Positions 11,133 through 41,264 of a stretch of DNA of 55,012 nucleotides are shown piece after piece. Position 1 is the stretch's first letter. Each line of letters begins with the position of its first letter. A model generated the notes under the pieces. The model saw only the letters and a list, made by a program, of their open reading frames with translations, had not been told where the DNA came from and did no database searches. Made by a program: the position numbers and the translations under genes. This DNA comes from an uncultured Gammaproteobacteria bacterium (GTDB taxonomy: Bacteria; Patescibacteriota; Microgenomatia; Levybacterales; GWA1-39-11), in contig CAYHUY010000003.1 in assembly GCA_964360265.1 (NCBI GenBank), positions 1-55,012 on the forward strand. The letters are read 5' to 3'.

Positions 11133-11199
11133 AAGAGCTACTCTTAAGATCGCGATGAGCTTGTCGAATCGTGAGCTTAAGAGTAAAGGTATACAGGTT

Positions 11200-11256
11200 G
11201 AGTGAAAGTTGTTCGCGTGAAGCGAACGGATCGTCTTTTGGACGAAACTTTCACTT
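11200..11256. other. compact three-helix (three-way junction) structured element at the left island end
   Basis: P1 is 11200-11210 paired with 11246-11256 (11 bp, one G:T). P2 is GTTCGC-GTGAA-GCGAAC (11211-11227). P3 is TCGTC-TTTTG-GACGA (11231-11245). The only junction nucleotides are GGA. Confidence 0.5.
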
Positions 11257-11461
11257 ACGCGTGTTTACTTTACCCATCTAGAGTCAGACCATTTATGGTA
11301 TCTTGCGCTGCAAGCTTTTGCAGAATAGAACCAAAAGATAGGCTAACTCAGTGTGTTTTTCTAATAGGCTCCCCGAGGGGGAGAGAAGGGCTCAGCTAGA
11401 CTTTCGTCTGCTTTGCATGTTCGATTTTATTCGAACCATCAGCCTCCTCAAAACGCACTGG

Positions 11462-11638
11462 CTAGATCCCCAGGAAACCCGAAAGCACCCACAAGACTAT
11501 CGCTATGATCACCAGTGTGAACACCAGCTCAAGGATGCCTCGTGAGAGCCAATTGTTCTTGATCTTTCGATCAAGGTCCTCAAGGAATTGCTCAATCGGA
11601 TCTCCTCTCAGGATCGAGATAACCTTGCTGCGGTTCAT
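11462..11638 (-). CDS. hypothetical 58-aa protein with a C-terminal TM helix (island gene)
   Basis: Not in the ORF track because it is under 60 aa. My translation is MNRSKVISILRGDPIEQFLEDLDRKIKNNWLSRGILELVFTLVIIAIVLWVLSGFLGI. It starts 7 nt after the upstream stop, with AGGAAG upstream. Confidence 0.4.
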   Translation of the reverse strand: MNRSKVISILRGDPIEQFLEDLDRKIKNNWLSRGILELVFTLVIIAIVLWVLSGFLGI

Positions 11639-11644
11639 TGCTTC

Positions 11645-12586
11645 CTACCTGGGGGGTAGGGAGCTCTGGTCGTAAGCCTGTTTGGCTGCATCTGCGCACG
11701 CCGCCGGCCATGACCAAGAGGTTCCACCACCCATGAGAGGAGCGTTGTTCCCGGGAGACAGGAGGATCTTGCGTTCCTGCTGGTCTTGTCCGGGTTCGTT
11801 GGTCCAGAAATTGACCACTCGCCACTCACCCGTAGGGACCCATCCCTGACCGACAACCGGTTCGCGAGTCTCCTTAACGCCAATGTCGCAATTGACCGAT
11901 CCCGCAGCAGATCCCTGAGCGGGTTGTTGTGCCGGAGCCGCCGCCGCCATTTGTGGGATCGGAATTTCGAATCCGCTCTCGCCCTTACGCATGGCTGCCG
12001 AGTGGATTGCCAAAAGCGACATGATGTCGTCCTGGCTCAGGTTCCGCAGGTTCGCCACGACCGTTGGAGGGTTGCTCCTGAGATCGATGACGAGTCCCGA
12101 GTGGCCGCTGTCGAGGCGAGCTTCCGCGTATGCGGTTGCGTCCGTAGTCCAGTTAAAACTGGCGCATTCGGGCGTGTCGCCTTCCCAAAGGCTGCCGTAG
12201 CCCCAGGCTATGTCGGGCACGCCGTCCGGATTGGCGATTTTGTCGATGATGTAGCTCACCGCGTAGATCCTAGCCGGCTGGTACTGAGGGTAGAAGTCCA
12301 GGTGTTGTCCACCATGGCCTCCAACCTCAATTCGGTGCGGGTTATTGCCCTCGCTCCATGTGCCGACCTTGTCAAGCCTGCAGGCGTCGCCTGACCCGTT
12401 TGCGAACGGGTTCTGTATGCCTGCGTCTAGCACGCCGGACGTCGCCGTTGCCGTGGGTGTCGCGGTTTGCTGTGCCGTCGTCGTTTTCACGCCGTCGTCG
12501 TCGAGAGCAAGGACAACAAGGCCGATCAGGGATCCGACCAGAATGACGGCCACGCTTGCTCCTAAGCTCCATCTAAGTAGATTCAT
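11645..12586 (-). CDS. hypothetical N-terminally anchored/secreted protein (313 aa, island gene)
   Basis: N-terminal TM ASVAVILVGSLIGLVVLAL, a Thr/Ala/Pro linker, then a Cys- and Trp-containing globular region. A strong SD (AAGGAGG) lies 6 nt before the ATG. I recognise no motif. Confidence 0.7.
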   Translation of the reverse strand: MNLLRWSLGASVAVILVGSLIGLVVLALDDDGVKTTTAQQTATPTATATSGVLDAGIQNPFANGSGDACRLDKVGTWSEGNNPHRIEVGGHGGQHLDFYPQYQPARIYAVSYIIDKIANPDGVPDIAWGYGSLWEGDTPECASFNWTTDATAYAEARLDSGHSGLVIDLRSNPPTVVANLRNLSQDDIMSLLAIHSAAMRKGESGFEIPIPQMAAAAPAQQPAQGSAAGSVNCDIGVKETREPVVGQGWVPTGEWRVVNFWTNEPGQDQQERKILLSPGNNAPLMGGGTSWSWPAACADAAKQAYDQSSLPPR

Positions 12587-12687
12587 TGTCTGCCTCCTTT
12601 AAGGCTTGAACTGAACGCTCCGCAAGATTCCATTAGGAATCTCAACGTGCATGCCTACCGATGTTTATCTCGATCGGATCACCTCTT

Positions 12688-13701
12688 TTACGGTGCCTGC
12701 TGCTTTCCGCCGAGTATGGTCGCGGGGTCGATGATGATCCCTTGACCGCTTGGCAGAAACGCGATCTGGACATTATCCGCCAGCTTCTGAAGCGCCTGGA
12801 ACTGGATCAAGAGAGGTGTGAGACTCTCGTTGATGAGCCGGTTGGCGTCTGCCTGACCCTGCGCCTCCGTACGCAGTCTCTCGGCTTCACCTTTTGCGGT
12901 CTCGACCCTCTGTTCGGCCTGGTTCTTGAAGAGCTCGATCTTGTTCTCCTCGGTGATGGCGTTCTGCTCTGCAATCACCTTGTCCTGAATCGCTTTTGCG
13001 TATTCAGGGTCGAAGGACAAGTTGTAGATACCGATCTTGGTAACGGTGATCGCATAACCTGCGTCGTCCAGAACTTGCTGCATCCGAGTCCGCACGGACT
13101 CTCGAAGTGCCTCTCGGTTTTGAGCGATTACCGTGCTGTCGTAGTCTGTCGTCTCTTCCTTCAGAATGTTGGGAAGCTCTGTTACGAACAGCTTGCCGAA
13201 GTAGTCCGGGCCGACGTTGTCCAGGATGTTCTCGACTGCTTCCCGGTCGACCTTGATGTTGATGGTGACATCCATGTAGACGTCTTGGTTGTCGTCACTG
13301 AATGTTTCCATCCGACCGGCGCGGAAATGTACACCTGAGAAGTCAGCGTCCTCGCGGTGTTCCGGTGCAACCCAGCCGAACGATTGCTCTCGTACATCCT
13401 GGCTCTTCACTTCCTGCCAAGGCGCCGTTACGACGAGTCCGCTCCCGGTGGTACCCGTCACAGCCTTGAATGTGTAGATGGCTCCGACGTGTCCGTTGGG
13501 TACCTGATGGAACATTGACGCCAAGGTGAAGATGAGCCAGAGCACGATAGCAAAGACCGAACCGCCCCATCGCAAAAGAGATCCAGCTTCTTCGGCTTCA
13601 GATTGCTCCTTCCGTCCTACTGAGCGGACCAATGTCCCAACCACGATAACGACGGGTATGACCACTACGAACATGGTGATCGAGAATATTATCCAACCCA
13701 C
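12688..13701 (-). CDS. SPFH / band-7 (prohibitin-like) membrane protein
   Basis: N-terminal TM, a PHB-type core (GHVGAIYTF...VTAPWQEVKSQDVREQ...VYMDVTINIKVD...), then a coiled-coil tail (IAEQNAITEENKIELFKNQAEQRVETAKGEAERLRTEAQGQADA). GTG start with an AGGA upstream. Confidence 0.85.
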   Translation of the reverse strand: MGWIIFSITMFVVVIPVVIVVGTLVRSVGRKEQSEAEEAGSLLRWGGSVFAIVLWLIFTLASMFHQVPNGHVGAIYTFKAVTGTTGSGLVVTAPWQEVKSQDVREQSFGWVAPEHREDADFSGVHFRAGRMETFSDDNQDVYMDVTINIKVDREAVENILDNVGPDYFGKLFVTELPNILKEETTDYDSTVIAQNREALRESVRTRMQQVLDDAGYAITVTKIGIYNLSFDPEYAKAIQDKVIAEQNAITEENKIELFKNQAEQRVETAKGEAERLRTEAQGQADANRLINESLTPLLIQFQALQKLADNVQIAFLPSGQGIIIDPATILGGKQQAP

Positions 13702-13789
13702 TGTGAATTTCCTTTCCTCTTCACGTCTTCGTGAAGGCTAGACTTGCTTGCTGTGGTGTTTGCCGGTGTGTTTGCCGCGCCTGTTTACC

Positions 13790-13918
13790 TCACGCCGTTC
13801 TTGCGTTTTTCCCTCCTCCGTTACGCTTTTCCTGACGCTTCTTCCGGGCGGACATACACTTGCAGGCTTTTTGGGCCTTGCGTCCTTTTCTCTTCGCTTC
13901 CGTCTTGCCGTTTGCCAC
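13790..13918 (-). CDS. possible 42-aa highly basic peptide (island), speculative
   Basis: GGAGG lies 4 nt upstream of GTG. My translation is VANGKTEAKRKGRKAQKACKCMSARKKRQEKRNGGGKNARTA. There is no other support. Confidence 0.2.
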   Translation of the reverse strand: MANGKTEAKRKGRKAQKACKCMSARKKRQEKRNGGGKNARTA

Positions 13919-14034
13919 GATGCCTCCTTGCGTCTATTTCCTCACTTACGGATTCATTCGGTTGTGTTTTTTGACCAACCCCCTTTCATGGGTTTCTTCG
14001 AGTTGCCGAAGTCTCTTCGGTTTTTGGCCGAAGG

Positions 14035-18264: not shown

Positions 18265-20370
18265 CTATTCGGCTGATTTTGTGGCTTTCTCTTCCTCTTC
18301 CGGAGGAGGGGAAATTAAGATAGGTGGTTTTTGAGGAGGAAGCTTTGCCGAAGGAGTAGAAATCTCAAGAGGTGTCTGATCACCTCCTGTTTGTACTTGT
18401 TGTTCGTTTATGGTGGTTTTGCCAATTTTTGCTTCAAGACTCTCTATCTTTGCATTAATTATATCGAGGTTTGTTTCATTGCCTTGAGATAATTGTTTTA
18501 CTGTCCTGTAGGCTGCAAGAGCATTTGTAAAATCTCCCTTTTGTTCAAGCGCGTTGCCTAGATTATAATACGCATTAGCAAAATCTCGCTTCAGATTTAT
18601 TGCAACCTGAAACTGGTTTTGCGCCGCATCGAAATTTCCTAGCTGATAGTAGATTCCTCCAAGTTGGATATATAGCTGTGGGTTAAATGGGTCAAGCGCG
18701 ATCGCTTGATTCATTGAGGAGATAGCAAATTGTTCTGCATTCTGTCCCACATTTATTAAAGCTCTATATATCTGTGCAAGGTTTTGCCAATGAACAGAAT
18801 TAAGAGGAGATAGAATTACTGCATTTCTTGCCGAGTTAATGCTTTGTTGAAGAAGGGAAACAATATTTTGCTGAACCTGGGCGCTTGGAGATGACCCCGG
18901 CTGAACACCTTGTGAAAGGGAGTTTGCGACCGCAAGATTTATTTGGGAAAAAACTCTATGATAATCCGCTCTTTGCGGGAAGTCGGAAATTGCTTGAGCT
19001 TGAAGCTGATAAGTCTTTTGTCCATTATTCTGCCTTGCATGTTTAAAAGATTCAGCAAAGGCAAAATCTGACATAGCAAATTTGTACGTATAAAACCCCG
19101 CAAAACCAGAAATCAAGATAACTAAAATAAATACTATTCCTGGCAAGATCGGACTTTCAGATCGGGATTCTCGTTTTCCTTCTGGAGTTGTTTCAAAAGA
19201 GAACATCCCGCTTTTAGTGAGTACCGTAGCGAGTGTCACATCTGATACTCTTCTGTCCTCGTTAACATTAAGATAGGATATGTAAATTGCAAGTAATATA
19301 AAAAGTAGAACTACGGATACATAAGATAGGGGAAGTATTATTGATAAAAAACACATCACGATAACAGGTATAAAAAAGGGATTTTTAGCGCTTTTTAATT
19401 TTAGCAATGAAAAGATTATGGCAATAAAGGAGATGGCACCTGCGAGTCCCGTTGTTGCAATGAGTTCAAGAAAGTATGACGAGGAAAAGCCAAAATTCAA
19501 ATTCCAAATGTTTGTGAGATTGAATGCCGGAAGCTTAAACCTTGTAAAATCAACCAGGAAGGTGCCATACCCCGAGCCAAAAATAAGAGACAGAATGAAA
19601 CGCGGCGAGTCTTGACTAATTGTTGCTAAAGCTGTTTGAAATCCATATATATAAGGAAGGACAATTGGCTTATTGGGTAAGAAAATGAGTTGATAGGTGA
19701 TAAGTGAAACGCCTGCGAGGCAAGCAAGTGCTGCCACCAATTGAATAAAAAATCCTACATCAGTTTTAATTACTTGGGAAATCATAATTTTTGGAAAATT
19801 AACAGCTTTAGCAATATAAAATACTGAAAAAATCAAAATTGGAATAAGGTATATTAAGTGCTGAATGGGAGATCCGTAAGTATTAAAGAATTGATTTTTT
19901 ATTTCGGGTATTGGCAAAAAATAGAAATTTGTAAAATATGCTATTGTAATGAGTGAAGATGCAGCCGCGCCAAGAACAAGACTTGCGAGCACAAAAGAGA
20001 AGGAGCGTTTATCGCGGATTGTGTTGACTATTAAAAAGAAGAAGATAATAGCAAAAACAACCGGAATCGCCTGGATTAGAGAATCATACCTATTTCTTGA
20101 CAGCAGAGTAGATACTATTAATACTGCGGCAAAAGTTAGAACAGGAAGATTTAGGGAATGAACAGTAAGTACAATTTTCCGCTCAATTAAAATCTTTACT
20201 CCCCAAACTACCAGCAAAATAATTACCGAACCAACGATCAACAGTTGTTTTGGAATAGTAAAAAAGTCCGTTGTGTTTACAAGAAATAGTATTGGGAGGA
20301 AAAAGAGAGTAAGTGATATGATTACAACGGATAAAATTGTTAAATTCTCAAGAGCCCCCTGTTTTTCCAT
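18265..20370 (-). CDS. O-antigen ligase-like polytopic membrane protein with C-terminal TPR repeats
   Basis: 701-aa ORF with about 12 TM helices, then TPR units (ALDPFNPQLYIQLGGIYYQLGNFDAAQNQFQVAINLKRDFANAYYNLGNALEQKGDF). Confidence 0.65.
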   Translation of the reverse strand: MEKQGALENLTILSVVIISLTLFFLPILFLVNTTDFFTIPKQLLIVGSVIILLVVWGVKILIERKIVLTVHSLNLPVLTFAAVLIVSTLLSRNRYDSLIQAIPVVFAIIFFFLIVNTIRDKRSFSFVLASLVLGAAASSLITIAYFTNFYFLPIPEIKNQFFNTYGSPIQHLIYLIPILIFSVFYIAKAVNFPKIMISQVIKTDVGFFIQLVAALACLAGVSLITYQLIFLPNKPIVLPYIYGFQTALATISQDSPRFILSLIFGSGYGTFLVDFTRFKLPAFNLTNIWNLNFGFSSSYFLELIATTGLAGAISFIAIIFSLLKLKSAKNPFFIPVIVMCFLSIILPLSYVSVVLLFILLAIYISYLNVNEDRRVSDVTLATVLTKSGMFSFETTPEGKRESRSESPILPGIVFILVILISGFAGFYTYKFAMSDFAFAESFKHARQNNGQKTYQLQAQAISDFPQRADYHRVFSQINLAVANSLSQGVQPGSSPSAQVQQNIVSLLQQSINSARNAVILSPLNSVHWQNLAQIYRALINVGQNAEQFAISSMNQAIALDPFNPQLYIQLGGIYYQLGNFDAAQNQFQVAINLKRDFANAYYNLGNALEQKGDFTNALAAYRTVKQLSQGNETNLDIINAKIESLEAKIGKTTINEQQVQTGGDQTPLEISTPSAKLPPQKPPILISPPPEEEEKATKSAE

Positions 20371-20490: not shown

Positions 20491-21024
20491 ATGGGAATCT
20501 TGACCACAAAGTTATCAAGAGAAGGTGTCACTTTAGTTGAATTAGTAATAGTAATTGCAATTCTTGCAGTGCTTGTATCGGTTGTTTCTTTTGCTTTTAA
20601 TCCACTTACTCAAATTGAAAAAGCAAGAAACGCGCAGCGCCAAAGTGATATACGAGAAATTCGTAATGCCCTTGAGACTTATTATCAGGATAAAAATTGT
20701 TTTCCAATAGCGCGTGACTTTTCGACGATACTTGCCTTAAACGGTGAGTGGTCAGAGAACGAAGGTAGGACATTCTATCTCAAAAAGGTGTCTGCGGGTC
20801 TTGGAAGCTTAGCCTACGTCTATAAAGCACAATCACAAAATTGTCCTCAGTGGGCAGTGATTTTTGCAAAGCTATCCATTATGTCAGAAGATAAAAACGT
20901 TTGCCCGTTATCTCACAATCCTGAATGTGCGCCGCAAGGATTCGATGGAACTTGGGCTTGCGTTACTTTAGGATCCCCTGATTGTCAGGATCTTTCGACT
21001 AGAAATTTATACATAAATTTATAG
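20491..21024 (+). CDS. type IV pilin-like protein (prepilin-type N-terminal cleavage/methylation domain)
   Basis: The N-terminus ...REG/VTLVELVIVIAILAVLVSVV has Glu at +5 after the predicted cleavage site. The C-terminal domain is Cys-rich. Confidence 0.7.
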   Translation: MGILTTKLSREGVTLVELVIVIAILAVLVSVVSFAFNPLTQIEKARNAQRQSDIREIRNALETYYQDKNCFPIARDFSTILALNGEWSENEGRTFYLKKVSAGLGSLAYVYKAQSQNCPQWAVIFAKLSIMSEDKNVCPLSHNPECAPQGFDGTWACVTLGSPDCQDLSTRNLYINL

Positions 21025-21041: not shown

Positions 21042-24000
21042 TTAATTCACTATTATCCAGTTGAATTTAATGTCTGTTGTAGTTGATGGAATATTTATGC
21101 CGACCGTAAATGAACCTTCCGCCCCCGCCTGCAAAGGATCTTCCGCTGTCTGTCTCAAAAGATATAAAACCCTACCATTTGTATTCCCAACAGGCGTTAT
21201 ATAGATCAATGAGTTTTCGGTAACATTTTGATTCTTGATGGTAATCTCACCTCTATATTGTTTTACGATCGCCGCTCCGGCTGATCCAGAAGCCACGGCT
21301 TCGATATCAGAAATGGCGAGAGCCTGCCTGGCTAGCGATAGATTTAATTTATTGAATGTACCGGAACCCGAAGCAACAAGTGCACCCCTAACATCAACTA
21401 ACGTGTCATCGTAAATCCCGTCCGCGGCGCTTGTTGCGGTCCCAGATTTGATAATAAGATTTTGGTTAGGTAGAGGAGAAATTATGTTCGCAGAAAGTGT
21501 CCCTCTAATGCTTACGTTGGAGGCAAATTCTGCGCTATTCAAAACCTTAAGCGTTCCATCTGTTTCAATCCTTACGTACCCTGCCATAAATGATATCGAG
21601 CCTTGTTTAAGCGGTTGAATTTCAAGAGTTTCGGAAAGTGTATTAATCGAATTCGGTCCGATCAGAAGCGTGGTGCCAACAGACATGCTATCAAGAGCAG
21701 TTATTTGATTAAATGTTGCAGGACCAAAAGCTATCAAACCCGATCGTATTGTAGCAAAATCTGCCGAAAGATTTTTTATGTCTAAGAAATCAAATTCTCC
21801 GCCTAAACTTGACACGTTATACGTGTTGCTTGATATTGATCCCGCAGCAATACTGGCGATCTTGGCTTCCAGTCCATCAATCGAATTAGCTTGGATCCGA
21901 TCAGCGTACAATGTTCCTGAAATTGTAGCCTGGTTAGCACTCAAATTATCGGTTGCTAATTCTCCCGATATTGAGGCACCGTTCGAACTCAAAATACCAG
22001 AGAACGTGGCCCGCCTCGCTTCGAGATCTCCGGCGAAGCGGGCATTCCCGGTATTATCAATTGATGCAACAACAGCTGAATCGCTAGCGCTCGAATTTTT
22101 AATTTCCAGTTTCGAATTTGCAAGATCAATAGCAATGTTCGATCCATCCGCAAGAGGAGATATGATATTGGTTCGGATTTGATCAATTGAGGCAAGAGGA
22201 GAAACAATAGATTCGCCAGTATTGAGTATTGAGTATTCAGTATTCAGTATAATTGCAACAGTAGATGCGATATAGTCGGAAAGACTTTGTCCTGCAATAG
22301 TTACAGAATCCGTAGCGACATTAAGACTAGATGCAAAAACATTACCTGCGTTTATCACTCCAAGAGTAAGGCTCTCAAGTTCTCCGGCGATACTTTTATG
22401 ATATGTGGAGCTATCTATATATACTATAATTTTTCCGATGCCATTTGCGTTGTAGTCTGCAAGCGCAAAGCCCGCTATTTTACCAGATCTGGTTGCTTTC
22501 ATACCAACACCTGGGATTGATGAGGACGTTATAGGATCGCCGATTTGAATCGGACCATTCTCAACTGAAACCTTAAGATGCACGCGGCCGGATAACGCCA
22601 CCGCGCGAGGATTTTTGGCGTAATCGTATATGTCCCTTCCAAAAGTTTGATAAGGACTCGATGAAACTATACCTATTATATTATTTTGATACGGTTCAGT
22701 TGATTCGGTCAGGATCGCAATTTGAGATTCAACTTTGCCCGCTAGTTCTCCGCTTTCCGGATTGGTTTTTTGGGCCATATAGGTTATCTTATTATTTGTC
22801 GCAACAAGAATTTCCGCTTCTTGTGCTCCGGCGGTTGTTTCATACCATTCGGCGATATCTGCAGGTGCACCCGAGCATGCGACAATATCACGATCAGCAA
22901 ATGTTCCATCGGAGTTTGCGCCCGAGTGACAGAGGCCGTTAGTTGTTGCAGGTTCGTTGGCATCTAATCTGATGTCGCCATTGACTTCCAATTCTTGACC
23001 TGGCACACTCACGCCAATTCCAACTTTTCCGCTTCCTCCTAAAGCGCTTAGAATAATATTTCCTGTACTTGTTCCTCCTATGGTAAGAGTATTATTATTG
23101 AGAGACTGTATTGTTGCAGTTGATGCATTAAGCGATAGTCCGTTGCTATTTATAGTAGCAAATATGGAAACCATTGGATTACCATTGCCAACTCCTGTTA
23201 TCGCAAATTCAGCACTTGCGGTTGCCCGTGAACCAATCAAGAGATCCATAGTGGAGTTATTAGAAAATAACGTTCCTGATCCCTGACCCCAAGCTAAATC
23301 ACAAGTGCCCCACAAGGGGTTTCTATCCCCCGAGAGAAGACAAAGTGATGGAGCGGAAGTGATTGCTTGACTAAGTATACCCGTGCCATTAGAGCCGTAT
23401 AAAACCCCATTTTTTTCTGTAAAGGCCGGTAATATTATCTCTTGACCCAACCGACCCAGAGAGAGAGTTGTTGCCAACGTACCTCCAATGCTCAGAGTTC
23501 CGGTTGAAATAGTGTCAAGCAAAGCTCCTGCTGCAAAACTTATGTCGCCATCGTTTGCTATTACGAAACGATTCGTGCCCGATGATGAAGCTGTGAAAAT
23601 ATCCCCACCAGTTGTATCGTTATTGATAACAAAAGCCGCGACGGCTGATTCTGTTGCAAGCACACTCATCTTATCATTAATCTCAACAGAACCGGGGGCG
23701 AGATTTCCAGTTGCGCTCGTATTAACTAATGGTTTTTCAATATTTATTCTGCCAATTCCATCTGGAATAATATTAATATCCCCATCAGAACTGTCTTCGG
23801 TTGCAAGGACTAAGGTTTTTCCGGAAATCTTAAATCGCCCACCGGTTGCGGCAAAAGTGGGATTAGCAGACCCTGCAAAAGTTAAATTGCCGGATGAATC
23901 AAGAGCCAAAATAACATTTTTACCTTTGGGAGAATCTGTAATAGGCAACATTCCCTGAAGAGTTTCGGAATTTTTGGCATAGGACACAGAAGGGAGTTTC

Positions 24001-25553
24001 TCGCGGGGCGCAAGTTCTGGCGTCTGCCCAATTGTTATACCAAGATATAGGGAGTCATAGTCGCGAAATATAGTTGCCGGCATACTATTCTTACTGCCGA
24101 GTAGTACAGAAAACTCACCGTTTTCGTCTGGAATTATACTTTGCCGTACTTCCTGCCAAAGAAGAGCGGATCCTGAGGCAGTCTCGCCGTTATAGATAGC
24201 AAATCTTAAATCAGCTTCGCTTGTGATTGGTTTATCATTATTGTCAATAAGCGTTCCATGAAATGAAAGTATTCTTGATACGGCTGTGGGTAAGGCGGAT
24301 GCTATTTGTTTACGTGCTTCAGGGAAAAGACCCGAATAAACAACGAAACCTAAAGCTGAAGCATAAATCACAAGGATGGTAAAATGAAAATAGTGCACGA
24401 TTGAATAACTATGATATCTTTTGTACCATTTTGGTCTTGTATACTTAGCATGATGTATTATTTTTTTTTGCCAGGAAAGGCCAACTAAGGAAATTTCATT
24501 GGGGGCATACATTGCCTTTGGAATATTAGACACGGGAGCAAAGAGGCTCTGGTTCAGTTTTGATGCATTTTGGCGCAGCCGTCCATACGGTACCCGGCGG
24601 AGACGACTATTATTAATTGAACGGGCGATATAAGAGGCGATCGAATCTTCAAGACTAAAATATGGCACTAGCAGTTTCTGTAGTAGTCTGATAGGAGGAA
24701 TCCGGGAGTGCCTTGAGTCTTGGATCTTACTTGCTCGGTCTTGGATTTGTTTAAAATCCCCAAGACTTAATCCCTTTTTTAAAACTGCCTGCCCACCAAT
24801 GCTAGACGTTTGCAGGCGGGGAAATTGGTCCGCCAGCCGGCGAATGAAAATTGGAAATTGTTCCAGGTGGCCTTGTGCCTGCGCAAACCGCAGATATTTT
24901 CTTATTGAGGATAATTTTCTATTAATGCTTCTAGGAGAAAGGTTAAGAATTGATATAAGGCTTTCTTTATAGTTATCAATAGCCACATTAGTAATTAGTT
25001 TGATATAGTCTTTTACGTTTACTCCCGCAGGTTGATCCGCCAGCTGGCGGATTCGGCTTTCTTTAATCCAGGAAGTAAATGCTCTTATGTCTGCAAGATA
25101 ATTTTTGATTGTAGATTTTGATCCACCATAAATATACAAATAGTCCTTAAACTCTTTTAAAAACCAGGGGTCAAAATCCTTATTGGAGATTTCCGACTCG
25201 CGATTGATGATTTCAAAAGGATTTTGAGAAATAAGTCCTTCTCCGGCTATAAATTCGGCGAATTTACGAAGCGTAGAGAGGTAGCGCTCAAATGAACGAG
25301 CGGGAGAAGGATTAACGATTGACGACCTGCCTGCCGGCGAGGCAGGTTCATGATTAACAATTTGGCCGCCTTGGGTTTTTGTGAAAAGGGTTACAACCTC
25401 TGCTGTTAAATCAGATGGCTGAAATGTTGTTGAAAAAGAGAATTCAAACCAAGAGAGGAAGCGGCGCAAATCAGAAACATAATTCTTAGCGGTCAAGGAT
25501 GATACCTTCCCGCGTATTAGGAGATAATTTCTAAATAATTCCAGCAATGGCAT
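21042..25553 (-). CDS. giant single-pass surface protein with a cytoplasmic N-terminus of recombinase core-binding (SAM-like) type repeats
   Basis: 1503-aa ORF. The N-terminal ~380 aa carry three modules resembling the tyrosine-recombinase N-terminal domain (LTAKNYVSDLRRFLSWF; STIKNYLADIRAFTSWI; RSINRKLSSIRKYLRFA), with no catalytic domain. One TM follows (IVHYFHFTILVIYASALGFVVYSGLF), then ~1100 aa of Gly/Thr/Ser/Asn-rich beta-type repeats. It is paralogous to the ORF at 53734. Confidence 0.85.
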   Translation of the reverse strand: MPLLELFRNYLLIRGKVSSLTAKNYVSDLRRFLSWFEFSFSTTFQPSDLTAEVVTLFTKTQGGQIVNHEPASPAGRSSIVNPSPARSFERYLSTLRKFAEFIAGEGLISQNPFEIINRESEISNKDFDPWFLKEFKDYLYIYGGSKSTIKNYLADIRAFTSWIKESRIRQLADQPAGVNVKDYIKLITNVAIDNYKESLISILNLSPRSINRKLSSIRKYLRFAQAQGHLEQFPIFIRRLADQFPRLQTSSIGGQAVLKKGLSLGDFKQIQDRASKIQDSRHSRIPPIRLLQKLLVPYFSLEDSIASYIARSINNSRLRRVPYGRLRQNASKLNQSLFAPVSNIPKAMYAPNEISLVGLSWQKKIIHHAKYTRPKWYKRYHSYSIVHYFHFTILVIYASALGFVVYSGLFPEARKQIASALPTAVSRILSFHGTLIDNNDKPITSEADLRFAIYNGETASGSALLWQEVRQSIIPDENGEFSVLLGSKNSMPATIFRDYDSLYLGITIGQTPELAPREKLPSVSYAKNSETLQGMLPITDSPKGKNVILALDSSGNLTFAGSANPTFAATGGRFKISGKTLVLATEDSSDGDINIIPDGIGRINIEKPLVNTSATGNLAPGSVEINDKMSVLATESAVAAFVINNDTTGGDIFTASSSGTNRFVIANDGDISFAAGALLDTISTGTLSIGGTLATTLSLGRLGQEIILPAFTEKNGVLYGSNGTGILSQAITSAPSLCLLSGDRNPLWGTCDLAWGQGSGTLFSNNSTMDLLIGSRATASAEFAITGVGNGNPMVSIFATINSNGLSLNASTATIQSLNNNTLTIGGTSTGNIILSALGGSGKVGIGVSVPGQELEVNGDIRLDANEPATTNGLCHSGANSDGTFADRDIVACSGAPADIAEWYETTAGAQEAEILVATNNKITYMAQKTNPESGELAGKVESQIAILTESTEPYQNNIIGIVSSSPYQTFGRDIYDYAKNPRAVALSGRVHLKVSVENGPIQIGDPITSSSIPGVGMKATRSGKIAGFALADYNANGIGKIIVYIDSSTYHKSIAGELESLTLGVINAGNVFASSLNVATDSVTIAGQSLSDYIASTVAIILNTEYSILNTGESIVSPLASIDQIRTNIISPLADGSNIAIDLANSKLEIKNSSASDSAVVASIDNTGNARFAGDLEARRATFSGILSSNGASISGELATDNLSANQATISGTLYADRIQANSIDGLEAKIASIAAGSISSNTYNVSSLGGEFDFLDIKNLSADFATIRSGLIAFGPATFNQITALDSMSVGTTLLIGPNSINTLSETLEIQPLKQGSISFMAGYVRIETDGTLKVLNSAEFASNVSIRGTLSANIISPLPNQNLIIKSGTATSAADGIYDDTLVDVRGALVASGSGTFNKLNLSLARQALAISDIEAVASGSAGAAIVKQYRGEITIKNQNVTENSLIYITPVGNTNGRVLYLLRQTAEDPLQAGAEGSFTVGINIPSTTTDIKFNWIIVN
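22218..22250. repeat. heptanucleotide tandem repeat (AGTATTG)x2 (AGTATTC)x2 plus a partial copy
   Basis: Read directly. It encodes NTEYSILNTG inside the giant ORF. Related TACTTAATACT-type units occur in the spacers at 27250-27315, 29070-29100 and 38293-38330. Confidence 0.85.
24788..24821. repeat. inverted-orientation copy of the CCCGCCTGCA...GCGGGCAGG palindrome family
   Basis: cctgcccaccaatgctagacgtttgcaggcgggg. It is translated here as PRLQTSSIGGQA in the cytoplasmic part of the giant ORF. Confidence 0.75.
25037..25050. repeat. perfect 14-bp palindrome CCGCCAGCTGGCGG (encodes RQLADQ); a related copy lies at 24830-24842 (RRLADQ)
   Basis: Self-complementary as read, and the peptide motif LADQ occurs twice. 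Confidence 0.8.
25326..25346. repeat. CCTGCCTGCCGGCGAGGCAGG palindrome inserted in-frame, flanked by an 11-bp direct repeat
   Basis: GATTAACGATT (25310-25320) and GATTAACAATT (25352-25362) are 42 nt, or 14 codons, apart. The protein shows IVN...IVN duplicated around HEPASPAGRSS. Confidence 0.8.
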
Positions 25554-26259
25554 GGCGATTATAATTTACACGGAATCCCGTGAAAATTAAGAAAAAATAA
25601 TTTACGGTAGTCCTCAATTTCTATTAGCTTCGGGATTATACTGATTATACGGTTTATACGTGCTTCTTTTAAGAGTAAGCTATTATTTATGATTTTGTCA
25701 ATAACCTAGAGTATTTTGCGTGAACATATATGATGTGTTTTGATGCTGTATAATTTAGCGATTGGTGTAGTGAAATCTAGCCTTGAATGTTATCGCATCG
25801 GCTTTTCATAGATTCTCAAAATAGCATTATCCCATTACGTTAATATATCTAATCAGATACAAATATATCAAATCCTCCAATTTATTCTTTGATGGGTTAC
25901 GATGCCTTTGCGGTTAATTGTTTTTGGCCGAATTTACTCACATCAGTAATTCAAAAATCATGGAATAACTATATGTTATTATTTTTTTACCTCTTCCAAA
26001 ATGTATTTCCCTTTTCATGTCATTATGTCAAATAAGACATTTGAGTGCCAAGTATGCAAGTACGCTATTTTTCCAATAAGTACTTATCTATTTTAGATAT
26101 GTGGTTTATTTGATGATCAATATTAATAATAGCTTAGCCTTAGAAGGTGAGATATTATTTGATTGCCCTTTTTATTTAAAGAAGATCTACAGACATTTAC
26201 TCTGAGACTAAAAATATTATTGTTTTCAATCATTCCTGAGGCGAATTGAGGCAAGTTTG

Positions 26260-27231
26260 TTAATTAGTCTTCCTTACTACTTTTATCCAAATTCCAATAA
26301 GAACAAGGGCAAAGAATGATATTACCGCAATAATATATAAAGGAAGAGCAAGAAAGCTGATTTTAGTCTCAAAGACAGGCCCATCCTGCGCGAGTCTTAC
26401 GTGAGCTGTTGCAGTATATAGACCAAGCAGAAACTTTTCAGGCCAAATAAGAGCGGGTCCATGCAAAGTGCTTATAGATTCTTGATCTGAGGCATTCATA
26501 AAACGATCCGAATTTGCAAGAATATATTGAGGCAAAATGTTGAGTTGACCTGCCTTTCTTCCGAACATATCCTTAATTGTTATATTTCCTTCCGGAACTA
26601 TATAACGTTGACTATTATTACGCACCAGGAGAGTAAAAGGAATGGGCCCGGAAAATACAACTCGCGGAGCCGAAAATTCACGAATCTCACCTGTTATTTT
26701 CCCTTTTTTGCCCACTGAGAGAATCACGTTTGTCCCAATTCCACCCACAATCTGCGATCCAGAAGTTTCATGAATATCCTCAGCCTTTGAGATAAATATT
26801 ACCGAAAAGTAATAATCGGATACAGGATCCCCTCTATTAAGAATAATTTCAAGAGTCAAGTTTTTTGCCTCAAAGGGTTTAAACGTTATATCTTTAATCT
26901 CCCGTTTATCTTCAAGTATCTTTATTTTTTGACGAAAAGTTGGGTCAGGGCCATAAATTTCACCTTCCGAAAGAAGTTCAATCTGACCATTACTGTTCTC
27001 TTTCGGTTTAAAAAAACGAATCATTAAATTTAGATGTAGTTCGTTTTCGCTTTGATTCTCTATGTTTATATTAGAATTAATTATTGCAGGAGGATCAGCG
27101 TTGATCTCGATAACTGTGGGGAAAATCCCAAGGGAAAACTGATCAGAATCTGAGATCTCTTGCGCATATAAATTAGTAGAAGGTAGCAGCAAGTAGCAGG
27201 TGGCAAGGAGCACAGCAAATAATCTTTTCAT
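26260..27231 (-). CDS. secreted two-domain surface protein with a C-terminal membrane anchor
   Basis: Signal peptide MKRLFAVLLATCYLLLPSTNLYAQE, about 260 aa of predicted beta-rich sequence, then a C-terminal TM (LALPLYIIAVISFFALVLIGIWI) and the KVVRKTN tail. The architecture is reminiscent of DUF916/DUF3324-type Gram-positive surface proteins; this resemblance is unverified. Confidence 0.7.
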   Translation of the reverse strand: MKRLFAVLLATCYLLLPSTNLYAQEISDSDQFSLGIFPTVIEINADPPAIINSNINIENQSENELHLNLMIRFFKPKENSNGQIELLSEGEIYGPDPTFRQKIKILEDKREIKDITFKPFEAKNLTLEIILNRGDPVSDYYFSVIFISKAEDIHETSGSQIVGGIGTNVILSVGKKGKITGEIREFSAPRVVFSGPIPFTLLVRNNSQRYIVPEGNITIKDMFGRKAGQLNILPQYILANSDRFMNASDQESISTLHGPALIWPEKFLLGLYTATAHVRLAQDGPVFETKISFLALPLYIIAVISFFALVLIGIWIKVVRKTN

Positions 27232-27690: not shown

Positions 27691-28443
27691 CTATATCGAC
27701 GGTATTGCGATATATATTATACTATTTTGATAATGTCCCTGAATTTGAGTTGCGGGAATATTTAACTTGTAGGTAATTTGACTTTTCATATAGGAACCTG
27801 TGCCTGAACCACTCATTACAATTTCAGCAGACTCATCATTTTGCCTATTTGCCAACTGTTTATAAAAATTTTCTCCGGCAAAATCCTCACTGCAGCTTTT
27901 GCCGGTAATATTATCACATCTATAACCAAAGCCGTAAGTAAGTGGGCTTTCCCAGATTGAAGCTATTCTCTCCGTGCATGTTCCTGCGTCACACGTTACA
28001 TCCTGGATTTGCGCTGTCTGTGGCGTTTTTGGTACGCTAACTTCTTCTGCTATCACCTTGTATCCTACAGCCGAGCCATTTGAAACTGTGAGTATGCCTG
28101 TTCTCGTAATTGGTTCTCCGGGATTGAGTGTCCCAAAATTTACGGAGAGGTTTGATATTGAAAAAGTAAAAGGCATAATTGAATCTATATACTGAAATCC
28201 GGACCTAACTTTGTAGTTATCAAATTCTGCCATTTCCCCCTTTTCCGTTGGAGTAATTTTGCCTTGATTTATTAACGGTTTTTGTAAAGAGGAATCGATG
28301 CGACTTTCCTGAATTTTATACTCCTGATTTTTCATGGAAGCCGCTTCAGAAATGCTTGTTAGACTAAAAACAAGCACAACAAAAGAAATCAAAATGCCAA
28401 CATGCGGAATGAAGAACAATGAATGGCGAATAATAATCTTCAT
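27691..28443 (-). CDS. secreted hypothetical protein (250 aa), possible surface-structure subunit
   Basis: N-terminal signal/anchor (ILISFVVLVFSLTSISEAA). The sequence is beta-rich with FGTLNPGEP and a C-terminal YKLNIPATQIQGHYQNSIIYIAIPSI strand motif, plus four Cys in the middle. Confidence 0.65.
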   Translation of the reverse strand: MKIIIRHSLFFIPHVGILISFVVLVFSLTSISEAASMKNQEYKIQESRIDSSLQKPLINQGKITPTEKGEMAEFDNYKVRSGFQYIDSIMPFTFSISNLSVNFGTLNPGEPITRTGILTVSNGSAVGYKVIAEEVSVPKTPQTAQIQDVTCDAGTCTERIASIWESPLTYGFGYRCDNITGKSCSEDFAGENFYKQLANRQNDESAEIVMSGSGTGSYMKSQITYKLNIPATQIQGHYQNSIIYIAIPSI

Positions 28444-28449: not shown

Positions 28450-29058
28450 TTAGTCTTTCAGGGCTTCTTTTCGAAGTTCATCCGTTTTTTCAAAAATATC
28501 TTCAATTTCATCAATGTCCTCATCTTGACCTCGTTTGCGCAAAGCTTCTGTGTCTTGTAGAATTTGATCCGTTTTTTCTAGGATCGCATCTTCCAATTGC
28601 TCTTTTTTTTGAGACTCGCGTCCTATGAAATAAGCAATGGGTGAAATAAGAACTAAAGATCCAAGCTTGATTAGGTTTGAGACCAAATTTCCTTGTGTTG
28701 CTGATTCAAAAAAAACAACCAAAATTCCCAAAAGTAAAACGAATACGGTTGCGGGATTATATAGAAATATTATTCCAAACAGTAGAAAATAGAGTAGAAA
28801 ATAAAGCTGAGAATCAAGACCTCCTGTTAATAATATTGCAAGCATCACAGCTGTAATTACTGTAAAAACTTCTTTATTTGAGCCCATAAAGAGTTCATCA
28901 TGTTTTTTGTTTCTTCGCATAAGAATTATAAAAATGACAGATATTACTATGATAAAACCTAAAATTGGAGCCATATATGAAGAAAGGGGTGTTGAAGCTA
29001 CAATGAGCACAAAGAGAAAAGAGAAAGAGGTTGTAAGGGATTGTATAAAGAACCTCAT
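28450..29058 (-). CDS. hypothetical polytopic membrane protein with an acidic C-terminal tail
   Basis: 202-aa ORF with 5-6 TM helices, followed by QKKEQLEDAILEKTDQILQDTEALRKRGQDEDIDEIEDIFEKTDELRKEALKD. Its stop is 6 nt from the next gene's start. Confidence 0.6.
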   Translation of the reverse strand: MRFFIQSLTTSFSFLFVLIVASTPLSSYMAPILGFIIVISVIFIILMRRNKKHDELFMGSNKEVFTVITAVMLAILLTGGLDSQLYFLLYFLLFGIIFLYNPATVFVLLLGILVVFFESATQGNLVSNLIKLGSLVLISPIAYFIGRESQKKEQLEDAILEKTDQILQDTEALRKRGQDEDIDEIEDIFEKTDELRKEALKD

Positions 29059-33119: not shown

Positions 33120-33160
33120 CCCCGCCTGCATTGCCTATTGCAAAGCAATTGGCGGGCAGG
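33120..33160. repeat. intergenic copy of the CCCGCCTGCA...GGCGGGCAGG palindrome family
   Basis: ccccgcctgcattgcctattgcaaagcaattggcgggcagg, located just upstream of comEA. Confidence 0.8.
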
Positions 33161-33173
33161 TTATCCTTTATTC

Positions 33174-33791
33174 ATGGATCGGGGTTCGGAAAAGCCTTTT
33201 CAAGACAAGCTAATCGAATTTGCCAAGAAGAATTTCTTGATTTTGGGCTTGTTTTCCATAGGATTGATATTCATAGGTATTGGTTTGATACAGATATTTG
33301 GTTCAAGCGCAACACAAATAAAATTCGAAAAAGGCCAGGATGTGTCCTTCGACGGTGCTCAGGATAAAGAAGGTTTAAAAATTAAAGTTGACGTTGAAGG
33401 AGAGGTTATAAAACCGGGAGTTTATGAATTATCTTCGGCCGCGCGAGTTCAAGACGCTCTTGTCGCAGCCGGAGGTTTGACGCGAGATGCCAATCGAAAC
33501 GCAATTAATCTGGCTGCAAAAATTGCGGATGGACAAAAGATATATGTGCCCGCCGTAGGCGAGGCAATGCTAGGGGGAGGATTCATCGCCGGTTCAACTA
33601 CTGCTTCGAATAGCATAATTTCGGTTAATTCCGCAAGTCAGTCGGAGTTGGAATCTCTTCCCGGAATTGGACCGGTTACAGCTCAGAAAATAATTGATGG
33701 CAGGCCATATGGTTCAATTCAAGAGCTCCTGGAACGCAAAATTGTCGGTAAGGCAACATATGAGAAGATCAAAGACCAAGTAGCTCTATGA
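33174..33791 (+). CDS. comEA: ComEA-type DNA-uptake protein (TM + SLBB-like + helix-hairpin-helix)
   Basis: N-terminal TM, the VDVEGEVIKPGVYEL...RVQDALVAAGG block, and C-terminal HhH (INSASQSELESLPGIGPVTAQKIIDGRPYGSIQEL). The start is set at ATG 33174, because the track's TTG at 33138 lies inside the palindrome. Confidence 0.8.
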   Translation: MDRGSEKPFQDKLIEFAKKNFLILGLFSIGLIFIGIGLIQIFGSSATQIKFEKGQDVSFDGAQDKEGLKIKVDVEGEVIKPGVYELSSAARVQDALVAAGGLTRDANRNAINLAAKIADGQKIYVPAVGEAMLGGGFIAGSTTASNSIISVNSASQSELESLPGIGPVTAQKIIDGRPYGSIQELLERKIVGKATYEKIKDQVAL

Positions 33792-33795: not shown

Positions 33796-34797
33796 ATGTT
33801 TCGCATAATCCTTATTCTTTCTCTTGCGCTTCTTGTTCGCCTTTTTCTTTTTTACACAAGCAATTCAACTTTGCAAATTAACACCACAAGCGGAAATATA
33901 GAATTAAAGCTTCCAATAATTACTTCAGCAAAAGAAAAAACATCGGAAAGCTTTAGAAAGACGCTTCCGGCGGACGCCTCAGGCTTGCTTTTAGGTATAC
34001 TGTTTGGCGAAAAAGGCAGTTTTGATAAAGAATATCTTGATGCCCTGAGAAGAACAGGCGTGCTCCATGTAATAGCGGCTTCCGGAATGAATGTCAGCAT
34101 GGTGGCAGGCGCAACGCTTCCCGTATTGGTTTTATTTTTAAAAAGAAGGCAGGCGCTAATACTATCCGCCATATTAATAATCCTTTACTGCGCCTTTGCT
34201 GATTTTGAAGAATCAATAGTTCGCGCATCAATTATGGCGGCGTTTGCCTTTGGAGCAGGACTTTTTGGCCGTCAGAATACGTCTCTTCTTGCGTTGTTTT
34301 TTGCCGCCTTTACGATGGTAATGTGGGATCCAAAAATTGTTGATTCGGTAGGATTCCAGCTTTCATTTGCTGCGACTTCCGGCATAATTTTACTTACGCC
34401 AATATTCAGAAAATTCGGGAACAATTTTCTACTCGAGGATTTGAGTACAACAATATCAGCACAAATTGCAACTGTCCCTATTCTACTTTTCTATTTTTCA
34501 ACCTATTCACCCATTTCAATTCTTGCAAATCTTCTAATTCTTTGGACAGTGCCTCCACTTATGATTCTTGGTTTAATCGCCCTGCCTCTATCTTTAATTG
34601 CGGAAGTTTTCGCCCTGCCTATTTTATGGATTGCTTTCCCTCTTTTAGTTTACTTTAAAGAGGTAGTTTTATTTTTAAACAAATTAGCAACGGAATTTTC
34701 GACAGACTCGATTCCCGTCACAATGATTTTGGGATACTATTTTATAGTTTTGGCGCTAGTCGCAGCCGTTCATAAAAAGCTAAAAATAAGAATATGA
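33796..34797 (+). CDS. comEC: ComEC/Rec2 competence (channel) domain protein, N-terminal half of a split ComEC
   Basis: Polytopic ORF with LLLGILFGEKGSFDKEYLDALRRTGVLHVIAASGMNVSMVAG, typical of the Competence domain. It ends in an ATGA overlap with the next ORF. Confidence 0.85.
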   Translation: MFRIILILSLALLVRLFLFYTSNSTLQINTTSGNIELKLPIITSAKEKTSESFRKTLPADASGLLLGILFGEKGSFDKEYLDALRRTGVLHVIAASGMNVSMVAGATLPVLVLFLKRRQALILSAILIILYCAFADFEESIVRASIMAAFAFGAGLFGRQNTSLLALFFAAFTMVMWDPKIVDSVGFQLSFAATSGIILLTPIFRKFGNNFLLEDLSTTISAQIATVPILLFYFSTYSPISILANLLILWTVPPLMILGLIALPLSLIAEVFALPILWIAFPLLVYFKEVVLFLNKLATEFSTDSIPVTMILGYYFIVLALVAAVHKKLKIRI

Positions 34798-41244: not shown

Positions 41245-41264
41245 CCTGCCTGCCGGCAGGTAGG
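41245..41264. repeat. intergenic copy of the CCTGCCTGCCGGCAGG(C/T)AGG palindrome
   Basis: It differs by one mismatch from the perfect copy inside rpsA (3244-3263). Confidence 0.85.

Follow-up and report, generated by a model that had tools for sequence, protein, structure and literature searches.

The bitopic regulators ToxR, CadC and TcpP carry an N-terminal cytoplasmic DNA-binding module, a winged helix, which is connected by one transmembrane (TM) helix to a small sensor domain on the outer side. In the eukaryotic membrane-bound transcription factor MYRF, which trimerises, a DNA-binding domain, a phage-derived S74 chaperone and a TM helix are joined in one polypeptide; its chaperone and DNA-binding domain share one side of the membrane, and cleavage frees the latter. 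In phages, the pre-neck appendage gp12 of phi29 (3gqh, 3suc, 6qz9) bears its chaperone at the extreme C-terminus, where it is discarded. Cell-encoded, phage-tail-fibre-like beta-helical proteins have been described in Bdellovibrio bacteriovorus as mosaic adhesive trimer (MAT) fibres (Caulton et al. 2024, PMC10769870; PDB 8ond, 8ol4, 8oml). In these the cell-proximal beta domain is conserved and the distal modules can be swapped; often there is an autoproteolytic chaperone, and a role in cell-cell recognition is presumed. Here we analyse a stretch of 55,012 nucleotides (the window; contig CAYHUY010000003.1 of assembly GCA_964360265.1, positions 1 to 55,012) from a member of the Levybacteria and describe a gene on its minus strand at 21042-25553, the fibre gene, that invites comparison with each of these systems. 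Its product, the fibre protein, is a chromosomal, lineage-wide surface protein of the Levybacteria and not a recombinase.

The gene is a single open reading frame (ORF) of 1503 codons without interruption, and the peptide motifs quoted in an earlier note on this DNA, made from the letters alone, are all found where that note placed them. The layout is that of ToxR, CadC and TcpP, but with two core-binding domains, whose DNA binding is predicted from homology, in place of the winged helix and a huge fibre in place of the small sensor. XerC, XerD and the phage integrases have a core-binding domain (PF02899, PF13495, PF13102) that is homologous in sequence and fold; in the fibre protein this domain is duplicated, lacks a catalytic partner and is fused to a TM helix and a 1090-residue ectodomain. 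The name 'site-specific integrase', under which members of the family are found in databases, is therefore wrong. The traits listed above for MAT fibres are shared by the fibre family. However, MAT proteins carry a signal peptide that is cleaved off and have no known anchor at the surface, whereas the fibre family uses a signal-anchor TM helix joined to a folded cytoplasmic module of DNA-binding type, and its chaperone is internal and followed by a conserved region of ~440 residues. In contrast to MYRF, the TM helix (aa 385-410) separates the core-binding domains (aa 1-232) from the chaperone (aa 898-1060). Overall, the data are best explained by an attachment fibre that is trimeric and uses its cytoplasmic module to bind DNA, possibly at its own promoter, in a ToxR-like manner, an explanation to which we give an even chance of being correct.

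The cytoplasmic part was examined by profile searches. Pfam Phage_int_SAM_1 (PF02899) matches the whole protein with E=1.4e-14 and aa 1-380 with E=1.3e-16, well over its gathering score, so that the profile similarity to recombinase core-binding domains suspected in the earlier note is real. The match falls into two stretches, the best of which, aa 132-228, spans profile positions 1-83 of 83; Phage_int_SAM_4 and Phage_int_SAM_5 also exceed their gathering scores. From the NCBIfam models XerC, XerD, XerS and XerA only the first ~90-130 positions align, with 26-57 bits against cutoffs of 220-335. XerC and XerD match over the first ~90 of ~295 positions only, and XerC TIGR02224 pairs solely its positions 2-91 with aa 134-235, i.e. 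with domain 2. The catalytic domain Phage_integrase (PF00589, R-K-H-R-H/W-Y) has no match at E<=1, neither in the whole protein nor in aa 1-380. As the Xer models are restricted to their N-terminal part and no catalytic-domain model matches, the protein contains no recombinase active site, just as the note had stated.

Three SAM-like modules had been proposed, but there are two domains, aa ~1-115 and ~128-232. The three motifs on which that count was based correspond to helix B of domain 1 and to helices B and D of domain 2; a fourth signature helix, RSFERYLSTLRKFAEF (aa 86-101), had been overlooked, and two domains with two signature helices each explain all four motifs. The domains align to one another with 36% identity (E=3e-13) and share the signatures T-x-K-N-Y-x-x-D...F..W in helix B and R-S-x-x-R-x-L-S-x-[IL]-R-K-[FY] in helix D, which are near-invariant among proteins that are only 30-50% identical. 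Invariant residues are T21, N24, Y25, D28, F32, W35 and R90 in domain 1 and N151, Y152, D155, N211, R212, K213, S215 and R218 in domain 2.

An AlphaFold2 (AF2) model based on 64 sequences shows two four-helix bundles with a predicted local distance difference test score (pLDDT) above 90, the helices of domain 1 comprising aa 2-14, 19-40, 51-59 and 85-104. The best Foldseek matches of a 440-residue query in the PDB are the N-terminal domains of Brujita integrase, XerA, IntI, XerD and Cre, with probabilities up to 1.0 and weak E-values for a small domain within a query of this length. Profile matches of domain 1 in the PDB include 9i5v chain 14 (8e-9), 3nrw and XerD (1a0p). The first of these, the best match, is uninformative as a functional clue, with only 34 residues modelled in the ribosome; the entry, under the name of the ribosome-associated 'RaiA', is a Porphyromonas gingivalis protein of 400 aa that apparently starts with a recombinase-type SAM-like domain. 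A profile search was needed here, as phmmer with the domain 2 sequence alone returned no PDB matches other than spurious ones to ankyrin and deformylase.

In Cre and XerD helices B and D contact the DNA by entering the major groove. Both core-binding domains of the fibre protein are basic throughout the family (pI ~9.4), with lysines and arginines kept in helices B and D, and from this homology we infer that the two domains bind DNA. The linker that follows (aa 233-360) has a net charge of +13 in the query and of +4 in the family median, and contains a conserved PPxRLxQK motif.

The segment aa 385-410 is the sole hydrophobic peak in 1503 residues and is modelled as a helix by AF2 (aa 384-409). 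No N-terminal signal peptide is found in the fibre protein, and 384 folded, basic residues precede the TM helix. In the query the 25 residues before the helix include seven K/R and no D/E, compared to three K/R and one D/E after it; in 64 family members the net charge of the 24 preceding residues ranges from +2 to +8 (median +6), and that of the 30 following residues has a median of +1. The juxtamembrane motif, with P374, W376, Y377 and Y380 invariant, is the most conserved element. Based on the charge asymmetry, the lack of a signal peptide and the folded basic region in front of the helix, a signal-anchor topology with the N-terminus inside and the C-terminus outside is the only reasonable prediction. 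The cytoplasmic N-terminus and the single TM helix assigned in the earlier note thus agree with a positive-inside pattern that holds family-wide and with the lone hydrophobic segment.

The exported part is rich in G, S, T, N, A and I, which matches the Gly/Thr/Ser/Asn-rich ectodomain noted before. A profile of 29 full-length homologues finds the Bdellovibrio MAT fibres 8ond (2.6e-8), 8ol4 (1.6e-4) and 8oml in the PDB, matches that bear on the variable segment aa 701-897, and weakly matches lambda gpJ. Foldseek with the ectodomain model returns lambda gpJ, pre-mature phi29 gp12 (probability 1.0) and phage cement/decoration proteins from the PDB. From BFVD there are 78 viral matches at E<=1e-3, among them 'preneck appendage protein', 'tail fiber-like protein' and 'gp37 distal tail fiber'. 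When mapped against homologues by BLAST, aa 1 to ~700/860 and aa 1073-1503 are conserved and the middle is variable. The membrane-proximal residues 421-700 are the best-conserved ectodomain region; a word-indexed homologue search with aa 411-700 returned almost nothing. The most variable part, aa ~700-897, lies just ahead of the chaperone and is exchanged for other inserts in homologues, e.g. for an LVIVD beta-propeller in P0016. It is the probable position of the receptor-binding tip after the predicted cleavage. Another homologue, P0098, has a carbohydrate-binding module (CBM) at the extreme C-terminus.

The ADIAEWYE...VALSGRVHLKV...GVGMKA block, which the earlier note had associated with tail-fibre-like proteins, is a Peptidase_G2-type intramolecular chaperone, and the association is upheld by profile, Pfam and structural matches alike. 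A 15-sequence profile of the block matches the gp12 autochaperone fragment 3gqh (5e-8), full-length gp12 6qz9 (1.4e-7) and the chaperone domain of the Klebsiella phage depolymerase Dpo31, and Foldseek aligns it to 3suc with probability 1.0. The profile alignment with gp12 includes the D-F/I-A-E-Y/W cleavage motif and the beta domain downstream. In it D899 falls on gp12 D692, i.e. residue 1 of the 163-residue fragment released by the cut S691/D692, and the D-x-A-E at this site is invariant in the family. Pfam Peptidase_G2 is passed by 8 of 15 members. In other members a Peptidase_S74 chaperone with an intact S-D-x-R-x-K fills the identical slot. The exchange of two analogous self-cleaving modules in one slot argues that trimerisation and cleavage, both predicted by homology, matter for the family.

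While the gp12 chaperone is at the extreme C-terminus, that of the fibre protein is internal, with aa 1061-1503 following it in G2-type and S74-type members, and it would act in an extracellular, ATP-free setting. The ~440 residues after it are 42-62% identical in close relatives and conserved irrespective of the chaperone type. The region aa 1073-1503, which shows weak matches to lambda gpJ, is restricted to Microgenomatia, e.g. Levy-, Curtiss- and Shapirobacteria. In the AF2 monomer model of aa 421-1503 the confident globular parts are aa ~430-520 (pLDDT 83-90), ~900-1050 (88-96) and ~1410-1503 (87-94).

A word-indexed search yielded 139 homologues of 1.2-2.6 kaa, all with SAM Pfam domains. 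Where named, they are labelled 'site-specific integrase', 'XerD', 'tail fiber domain-containing protein' or 'hypothetical', and the organisms are Candidatus Levybacteria. Using phmmer with aa 1-440 against 1.84 billion representatives, clustered at 50% identity, we found at least 170 clusters at E<=1e-30, ranging from 1.2 kaa to 6048 aa. A survey of one genome per GTDB species confirmed at least 162 loci, with titles naming Levybacteria, Levyibacteriota or Patescibacteria; the phyletic spread of the fusion is thus essentially confined to Levybacteria/Microgenomatia. The title 'uncultured Gammaproteobacteria' on many third-party annotation (TPA) metagenome-assembled genomes is taken to be a placeholder, since their gene order is identical. 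No relative of the family is found in the 2.9 million contigs of IMG/VR, and tblastn with the C-terminal 612 aa gives no match in 50,697 phage genomes. This absence from viral collections indicates a cellular, lineage-wide gene rather than a prophage leftover, and its conservation in well over a hundred species shows that it is neither an artefact nor a pseudogene. The one public gene call identical to the fibre protein of the window (P0226, on a 15.8-kb contig) spans the C-terminal 735 aa only, so that the full architecture is unrepresented for this organism in the protein collection. A search of the literature gave no description of the core-binding/fibre fusion or of the repeat array described below.

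Upstream of the fibre gene we identified a 36-bp repeat element (CGTATAAACCGTATAATCAGTATAATCCCGAAGCTAA) that ends 70 nt 5' of the ATG. The loci examined contain two to three 9-nt direct repeats with the unit GTATAATCN, and the family consensus of the array reads (g/t)ATAAtcc-GTATAATCn-GTATAATC-TCGaGGCTAa. Each of the 75 loci whose upstream sequence is long enough contains the array, exactly or with at most three mismatches and with a 9-nt period throughout. In 1.16 Mb from 82 related loci we count 71 copies of the 14-base pattern GTATAATNNGTATAAT, always upstream of and co-oriented with the fibre gene, compared to a chance expectation of ~0.1 (a rough estimate from base composition). Within the window the repeat pattern is found at this one place only. 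An exact 19-base version retrieved 116 stretches from 241 million metagenome records, 108 of them with enough downstream sequence. A family member lies directly downstream in 98 of these 108, and three of the other ten have the full extended context.

The spacer between the fibre gene and the preceding gene u323 is AT-rich and measures 706 nt here (median 659 nt in 38 loci). It contains no convincing ORF and no Rfam match, and a generic promoter scan stayed at chance level. In five loci the array ends 7-13 nt before the ATG. Given this distance, the -10 hexamer of the core promoter most likely lies within it, and the transcripts of these five loci are most likely leaderless or have short leaders, while leaders may reach ~600 nt at other loci. 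Three -10-like units in strict phase, exclusive to one gene and with conserved flanks, exceed what sigma-70 needs for recognition, and are as expected for an operator that overlaps the promoter. A 12-nt inverted repeat (TAATTTTCACGG-gatt-CCGTGTAAATTA, 25562-25589) lies 9-36 nt upstream of the fibre ATG; it is itself conserved in 5 of 62 loci, and TTTTCAC occurs near the start codon in many orthologous loci.

Two like domains with shared helix B and D signatures thus face tandem like repeats, a pairing that fits naturally. Both the repeat sequence and the recognition-helix residues are almost invariant across the family, and the tandem pair of the fibre protein is the only module of DNA-binding type in the conserved gene cluster. 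We propose, tentatively and as less than an even bet, that the two domains bind the repeats at the promoter of their own gene and make the protein an autoregulator. The suggestion of the earlier note that the protein is a membrane-tethered regulator or sensor gains circumstantial support from gene-specific repeats that overlap the promoter of its own gene; the DNA binding on which it depends is predicted by homology.

The protein could then work as follows. It is strongly supported that the first ~384 residues, comprising the two paralogous core-binding domains, the basic linker and the basic juxtamembrane motif, stay in the cytoplasm, and that the ~1090 residues after the signal-anchor helix are exported and resemble phage tail fibres and MAT fibres. 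By homology, the G2-type chaperone would drive trimerisation and cut the chain at A898/D899. This would leave aa 1-898 anchored in the membrane with ~490 external residues, the variable distal part of which may contact the target, while the conserved C-terminal fragment of ~600 residues would be released or held non-covalently. Together with the Pam-like proteins encoded next to it (see below), the fibre may work as one attachment apparatus of a probably episymbiotic cell. On the inner side the two core-binding domains would bind the tandem 9-bp GTATAATCN repeats over the promoter of the fibre gene, most simply as a repressor, resulting in negative autoregulation or in contact-dependent de-repression. 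Such a ToxR-like tethered autoregulator would couple fibre number or fibre engagement to its own transcription. In very small cells the nucleoid would be near the membrane everywhere, and the tether need not block binding to the promoter.

Several points weigh against this scheme. The repeats contain a perfect TATAAT, and the array may be no more than a core promoter of an uncommon kind, or may be bound by another factor. In one locus (L158) u202, u250, u323 and the repeats precede a TM-anchored DUF2341/LamG-like protein that lacks SAM domains, which demonstrates that the array can exist without a SAM module encoded in cis. An isolated core-binding domain usually binds DNA weakly. The AF2 monomer model of the ectodomain has a low overall confidence (mean pLDDT 64), and the query itself stays under the Peptidase_G2 threshold. 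To our knowledge, intramolecular chaperones sit C-terminally, and with ~440 conserved residues following here both cleavage and the fate of the fragment are uncertain. Finally, we know of no host or cell biology described for Levybacteria.

L158 is the metagenome contig Ga0182027_10001177, with the motif at ~6740 of the reverse complement, tandem GTATAATC repeats and a second u323-like copy. Its downstream protein consists of a short basic N-terminus, a TM helix and the DUF2341/LamG-like domains.

A purely structural role has to be considered, in which the core-binding domains form a bulky basic cytoplasmic anchor or nucleoid tether without regulatory function and the repeats are a promoter or the site of an unrelated regulator. 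The domains might then bind non-specific DNA, anionic lipid or a cytoplasmic partner, or assist trimer assembly. The whole cytoplasmic part is basic, including the linker and the juxtamembrane motif and not just the putative recognition helices, and the conservation peak in the juxtamembrane motif would point to a membrane or partner interaction. The consensus -10 hexamers within the repeats, their position directly at the ATG in some loci and the retention of the repeats in L158 are likewise in line with an anchor. However, an anchor has no need for two folded domains that keep near-invariant helix B and D signatures at 30-50% identity, and an array exclusive to the fibre gene in the 1.16 Mb and in the metagenome collection is unlike a generic promoter. 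We regard the structural anchor as possible, but would not expect it. A transcription factor that is set free in the manner of MYRF or by regulated proteolysis, where engagement or processing of the ectodomain leads to an intramembrane or juxtamembrane cut that frees the DNA-binding module, appears improbable. MYRF itself, cited in the MAT paper (PMC10769870), offers a precedent for combining a DNA-binding domain, an S74 chaperone and a TM helix. The linker of the fibre protein is long and disordered, and the window contains a gene of the M50 site-2-protease family (646-1293). This gene, however, is 24 kb away and a common housekeeping gene, the linker has no evident cleavage motif, and the chaperone is located across the membrane from the DNA-binding module, which self-cleavage thus cannot free.

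Participation in DNA uptake had also been suggested; the cytoplasmic module would then receive or hold incoming DNA together with the adjacent pilin and ComEA/ComEC, which is very improbable. The window does contain comEA (33138-33791) and comEC (33796-35630), which are conserved nearby in relatives, and a prepilin-type gene (GspG-like, N_methyl; 20491-21024, plus strand) abuts the fibre gene, between it and the TPR gene. Yet a type IV pilin-like gene occupies the position next to the fibre gene in none of 43 related loci, and a functional link to the pilin is rejected for this reason. The comEA/comEC genes are on the other strand, past leuS and one more gene, which speaks for general synteny and not for an operon. 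Furthermore, the ectodomain resembles tail fibres and not DNA-binding proteins, and core-binding domains bind duplex DNA while ComEC delivers single strands. ComEC appears to be split here into two overlapping plus-strand ORFs, 33796-34797 (Competence domain) and 34794-35630 (metallo-beta-lactamase). As both halves of the protein have phage-related homologues, and given database labels such as 'site-specific integrase' and 'tail fiber domain-containing protein', one might also think of a prophage remnant or artefact, i.e. a tail-fibre gene to which decay, mis-assembly or gene-calling has joined a piece of an integrase. This is effectively refuted by the same full-length architecture in more than 120 independent assemblies (from NCBI, JGI, ENA and Logan), by the invariant residues and the synteny beside leuS, rho and other housekeeping genes, and by the absence from the viral sets searched above.

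The coordinates of the fibre gene, its segments, the upstream element, the neighbouring genes and the palindromic insertions are compiled in Table 1.

Table 1. Features of the fibre locus in window coordinates.
Feature	Residues	Position	Strand	Description
Fibre gene	1-1503	21042..25553	minus	two core-binding domains, linker, TM helix, tail-fibre-like ectodomain
SAM-like/core-binding (CB) domain 1	1-115	25209..25553	minus	
SAM-like/core-binding domain 2	128-232	24858..25172	minus	
Cytoplasmic linker	233-360	24474..24857	minus	basic, partly disordered; conserved helix aa 286-319
Juxtamembrane motif	361-384	24402..24473	minus	K-Y-T-R-P-x-W-Y-K-R-Y-H-S-Y, near-invariant
TM helix/signal anchor	385-410	24324..24401	minus	single; N-terminus predicted inside
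Membrane-proximal ectodomain	421-700	23454..24293	minus	conserved; beta-sandwich aa ~430-520, then beta-rich fibre
Variable fibre segment	701-897	22863..23453	minus	probable distal/receptor-binding part of mature fibre
Peptidase_G2-type intramolecular chaperone	898-1060	22374..22862	minus	predicted autocleavage A898/D899 (codons 22860-22862, 22857-22859)
Conserved C-terminal region	1073-1503	21045..22337	minus	final beta-sandwich aa ~1410-1503; FNWxIVN C-terminus
Upstream element, gene-specific		25624..25659	minus	three 9-nt units GTATAAACC-GTATAATCA-GTATAATCC, then CGAAGCTAA
u323		26260..27231	minus	signal peptide, beta-rich domains, C-terminal TM helix; WxLIP (DUF916)-like
u250		27691..28443	minus	distant Pam-pilus pilin-family protein, PamT-like
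u202		28450..29058	minus	small polytopic membrane protein, acidic C-terminal tail; conserved
TPR membrane protein		18265..20370	minus	polytopic, C-terminal TPR repeats
Palindrome 1, GC-rich (ACCTGCCTGCCGGCGAGGCAGGT)	domain 1 loop	25325..25347		in-frame insert of ~7 aa
Palindrome 2, GC-rich (ATCCGCCAGCTGGCGGAT)	domain 2 loop	25035..25052		in-frame insert
Palindrome 3, GC-rich, related to palindrome 2	just after domain 2	24812..24844		flanked by 12-nt direct repeats

The gene neighbourhood was compared in the 43 related loci, all of them 15 kb or longer. One strand carries, in conserved order, u202, u250, u323, the fibre gene and the gene of the TPR membrane protein. u323 is co-oriented and present in 42 loci, u250 in 41, and the TPR membrane protein downstream was detected in 24, a count limited by the length of the flanks. 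leuS (39 of the 43 loci) and comEA/comEC flank the cluster on the opposite strand. No family could be assigned to u202. In the u323 family 34 of 46 members match Pfam WxLIP_PGBD (best E=4.5e-7), with u323 of the query itself under detection; u323 has no PDB or NCBIfam match. WxLIP_PGBD is the former DUF916 of Gram-positive WxL loci. The query u250 matches CPR_pilus_PamT with E=1.9e-5 (24 bits, cutoff 240) and CPR_Pam_pilin_C with E=5e-5 (23 bits, cutoff 55), while in its family 43 of 46 members match the former (E<=0.01, best 6e-17) and 34 of 46 the latter. Profiles of u323 and u250 gave nothing significant against PDB sequences.

Pam pili of a Saccharimonadia episymbiont are donor-strand-exchange pili, and their PapD-like chaperones unusually bear a C-terminal TM helix (Troman et al. 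2026, 10.64898/2026.03.03.709456). The layout of u323, a signal peptide and a C-terminal TM helix, is the one described for the chaperones PamC/PamD. The locus recalls the Pam pilus locus (10.64898/2026.03.03.709456) in that u250 may correspond to Pam pilin/PamT and u323 to the TM-anchored PamC/D-type chaperones. It differs in that u250 scores far under the NCBIfam cutoffs and that, among the 17 window ORFs scanned against NCBIfam, no Pam model besides those of u250 was matched and no major pilin PamA/PamB was identified. According to the same preprint (10.64898/2026.03.03.709456) a 'tail fibre-like protein' and ATP synthase genes consistently lie beside pam operons across the candidate phyla radiation (CPR), and an ATP synthase operon is found in the window at 47.7-53.5 kb. 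The words 'integrase', 'recombinase' and 'XerD' each occur zero times in that text (10.64898/2026.03.03.709456). The conserved gene order suggests that the fibre and the co-encoded Pam-pilus-like proteins act jointly as a cell-surface attachment apparatus. The WxLIP_PGBD matches also suggest that the Pam chaperone-like proteins of CPR are related to Gram-positive WxL-locus proteins; the preprint (10.64898/2026.03.03.709456) likens its chaperones to PapD/FimC only.

Four GC-rich palindromic insertions had been reported in the region encoding the cytoplasmic part, three of which are confirmed. The fourth (aa 317-328) is GC-rich, but fails the hairpin scan and is kept in the closest relative (68% identity), and was rejected. 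Compared with this relative, palindromes 1 and 2 add 7 and 3 residues, and the site of palindrome 3 is occupied there by a different palindrome-like insert, LPAGRQV. Palindrome 1 is modelled by AF2 as a beta-hairpin within aa ~62-82 of domain 1. The direct repeats at its borders were considered as target-site duplications and discarded, as the relative has both 'IVN' copies without the palindrome. Palindrome 1 belongs to a family (CCTGCCTGCCGGCAGGCAGG) of 20-nt perfect palindromes that are GC-rich in a genome otherwise of ~40% GC. One further copy (3244-3263) is in frame in a linker of the ribosomal protein S1 gene, where it encodes ...SLPAGRQVEG... and adjoins a second GC-rich segment, 'SRPELVEG'; another (41245-41264) is intergenic, upstream of mreB. 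The family also occurs in three related loci (L023:2596-2613, L026:19020-19037 and L031:9046-9063), and a second palindrome type (TCCGCCAGCTGGCGGA) is found twice in the fibre gene. These palindromes look like very short mobile or recombinogenic elements tolerated in protein loops, and are a side phenomenon without a part in the function of the fibre protein.

Elsewhere in the window, an island of 50-58% GC at ~11000-14000, within ~40% GC, is possibly a recent horizontal acquisition and includes an SPFH/Band 7 gene (12688-13701, minus) and an ORF of 313 aa without a family match (11645-12586, minus). An ORF of 1158 aa (6712-10188, minus) has no Pfam/NCBIfam match and adjoins a family-2 glycosyltransferase gene (10197-11132).

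The fibre family widens the known cellular reuse of phage fibre-maturation modules to internal, interchangeable G2/S74 chaperones placed before a conserved region. Labels such as 'site-specific integrase' and 'XerD' inflate the counts of recombinases and mobile elements in CPR bacteria and hide a large family of adhesins. Levybacteria are tiny and probably host-dependent, and host recognition and attachment in the CPR/Patescibacteria are largely unknown. Being near-universal in Levybacteria, equipped with swappable distal modules and encoded beside Pam-pilus-like genes, the fibre is a prime candidate for a determinant of host range. The core-binding module and the gene-exclusive array lead to a testable hypothesis of contact-to-transcription signalling in organisms with very few regulators. 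The protein could be a one-component transmembrane signalling device, in which a phage-derived contact fibre is wired through the membrane to a module reading the 9-bp array at its own promoter and possibly elsewhere, a speculative view that we consider less likely than not. If it is true, an ultra-small episymbiont would convert contact with its host, or the loss of it, into a transcriptional change, and for the first time the core-binding domain of a tyrosine recombinase would be seen exapted as a stand-alone transcription factor tethered to the membrane.

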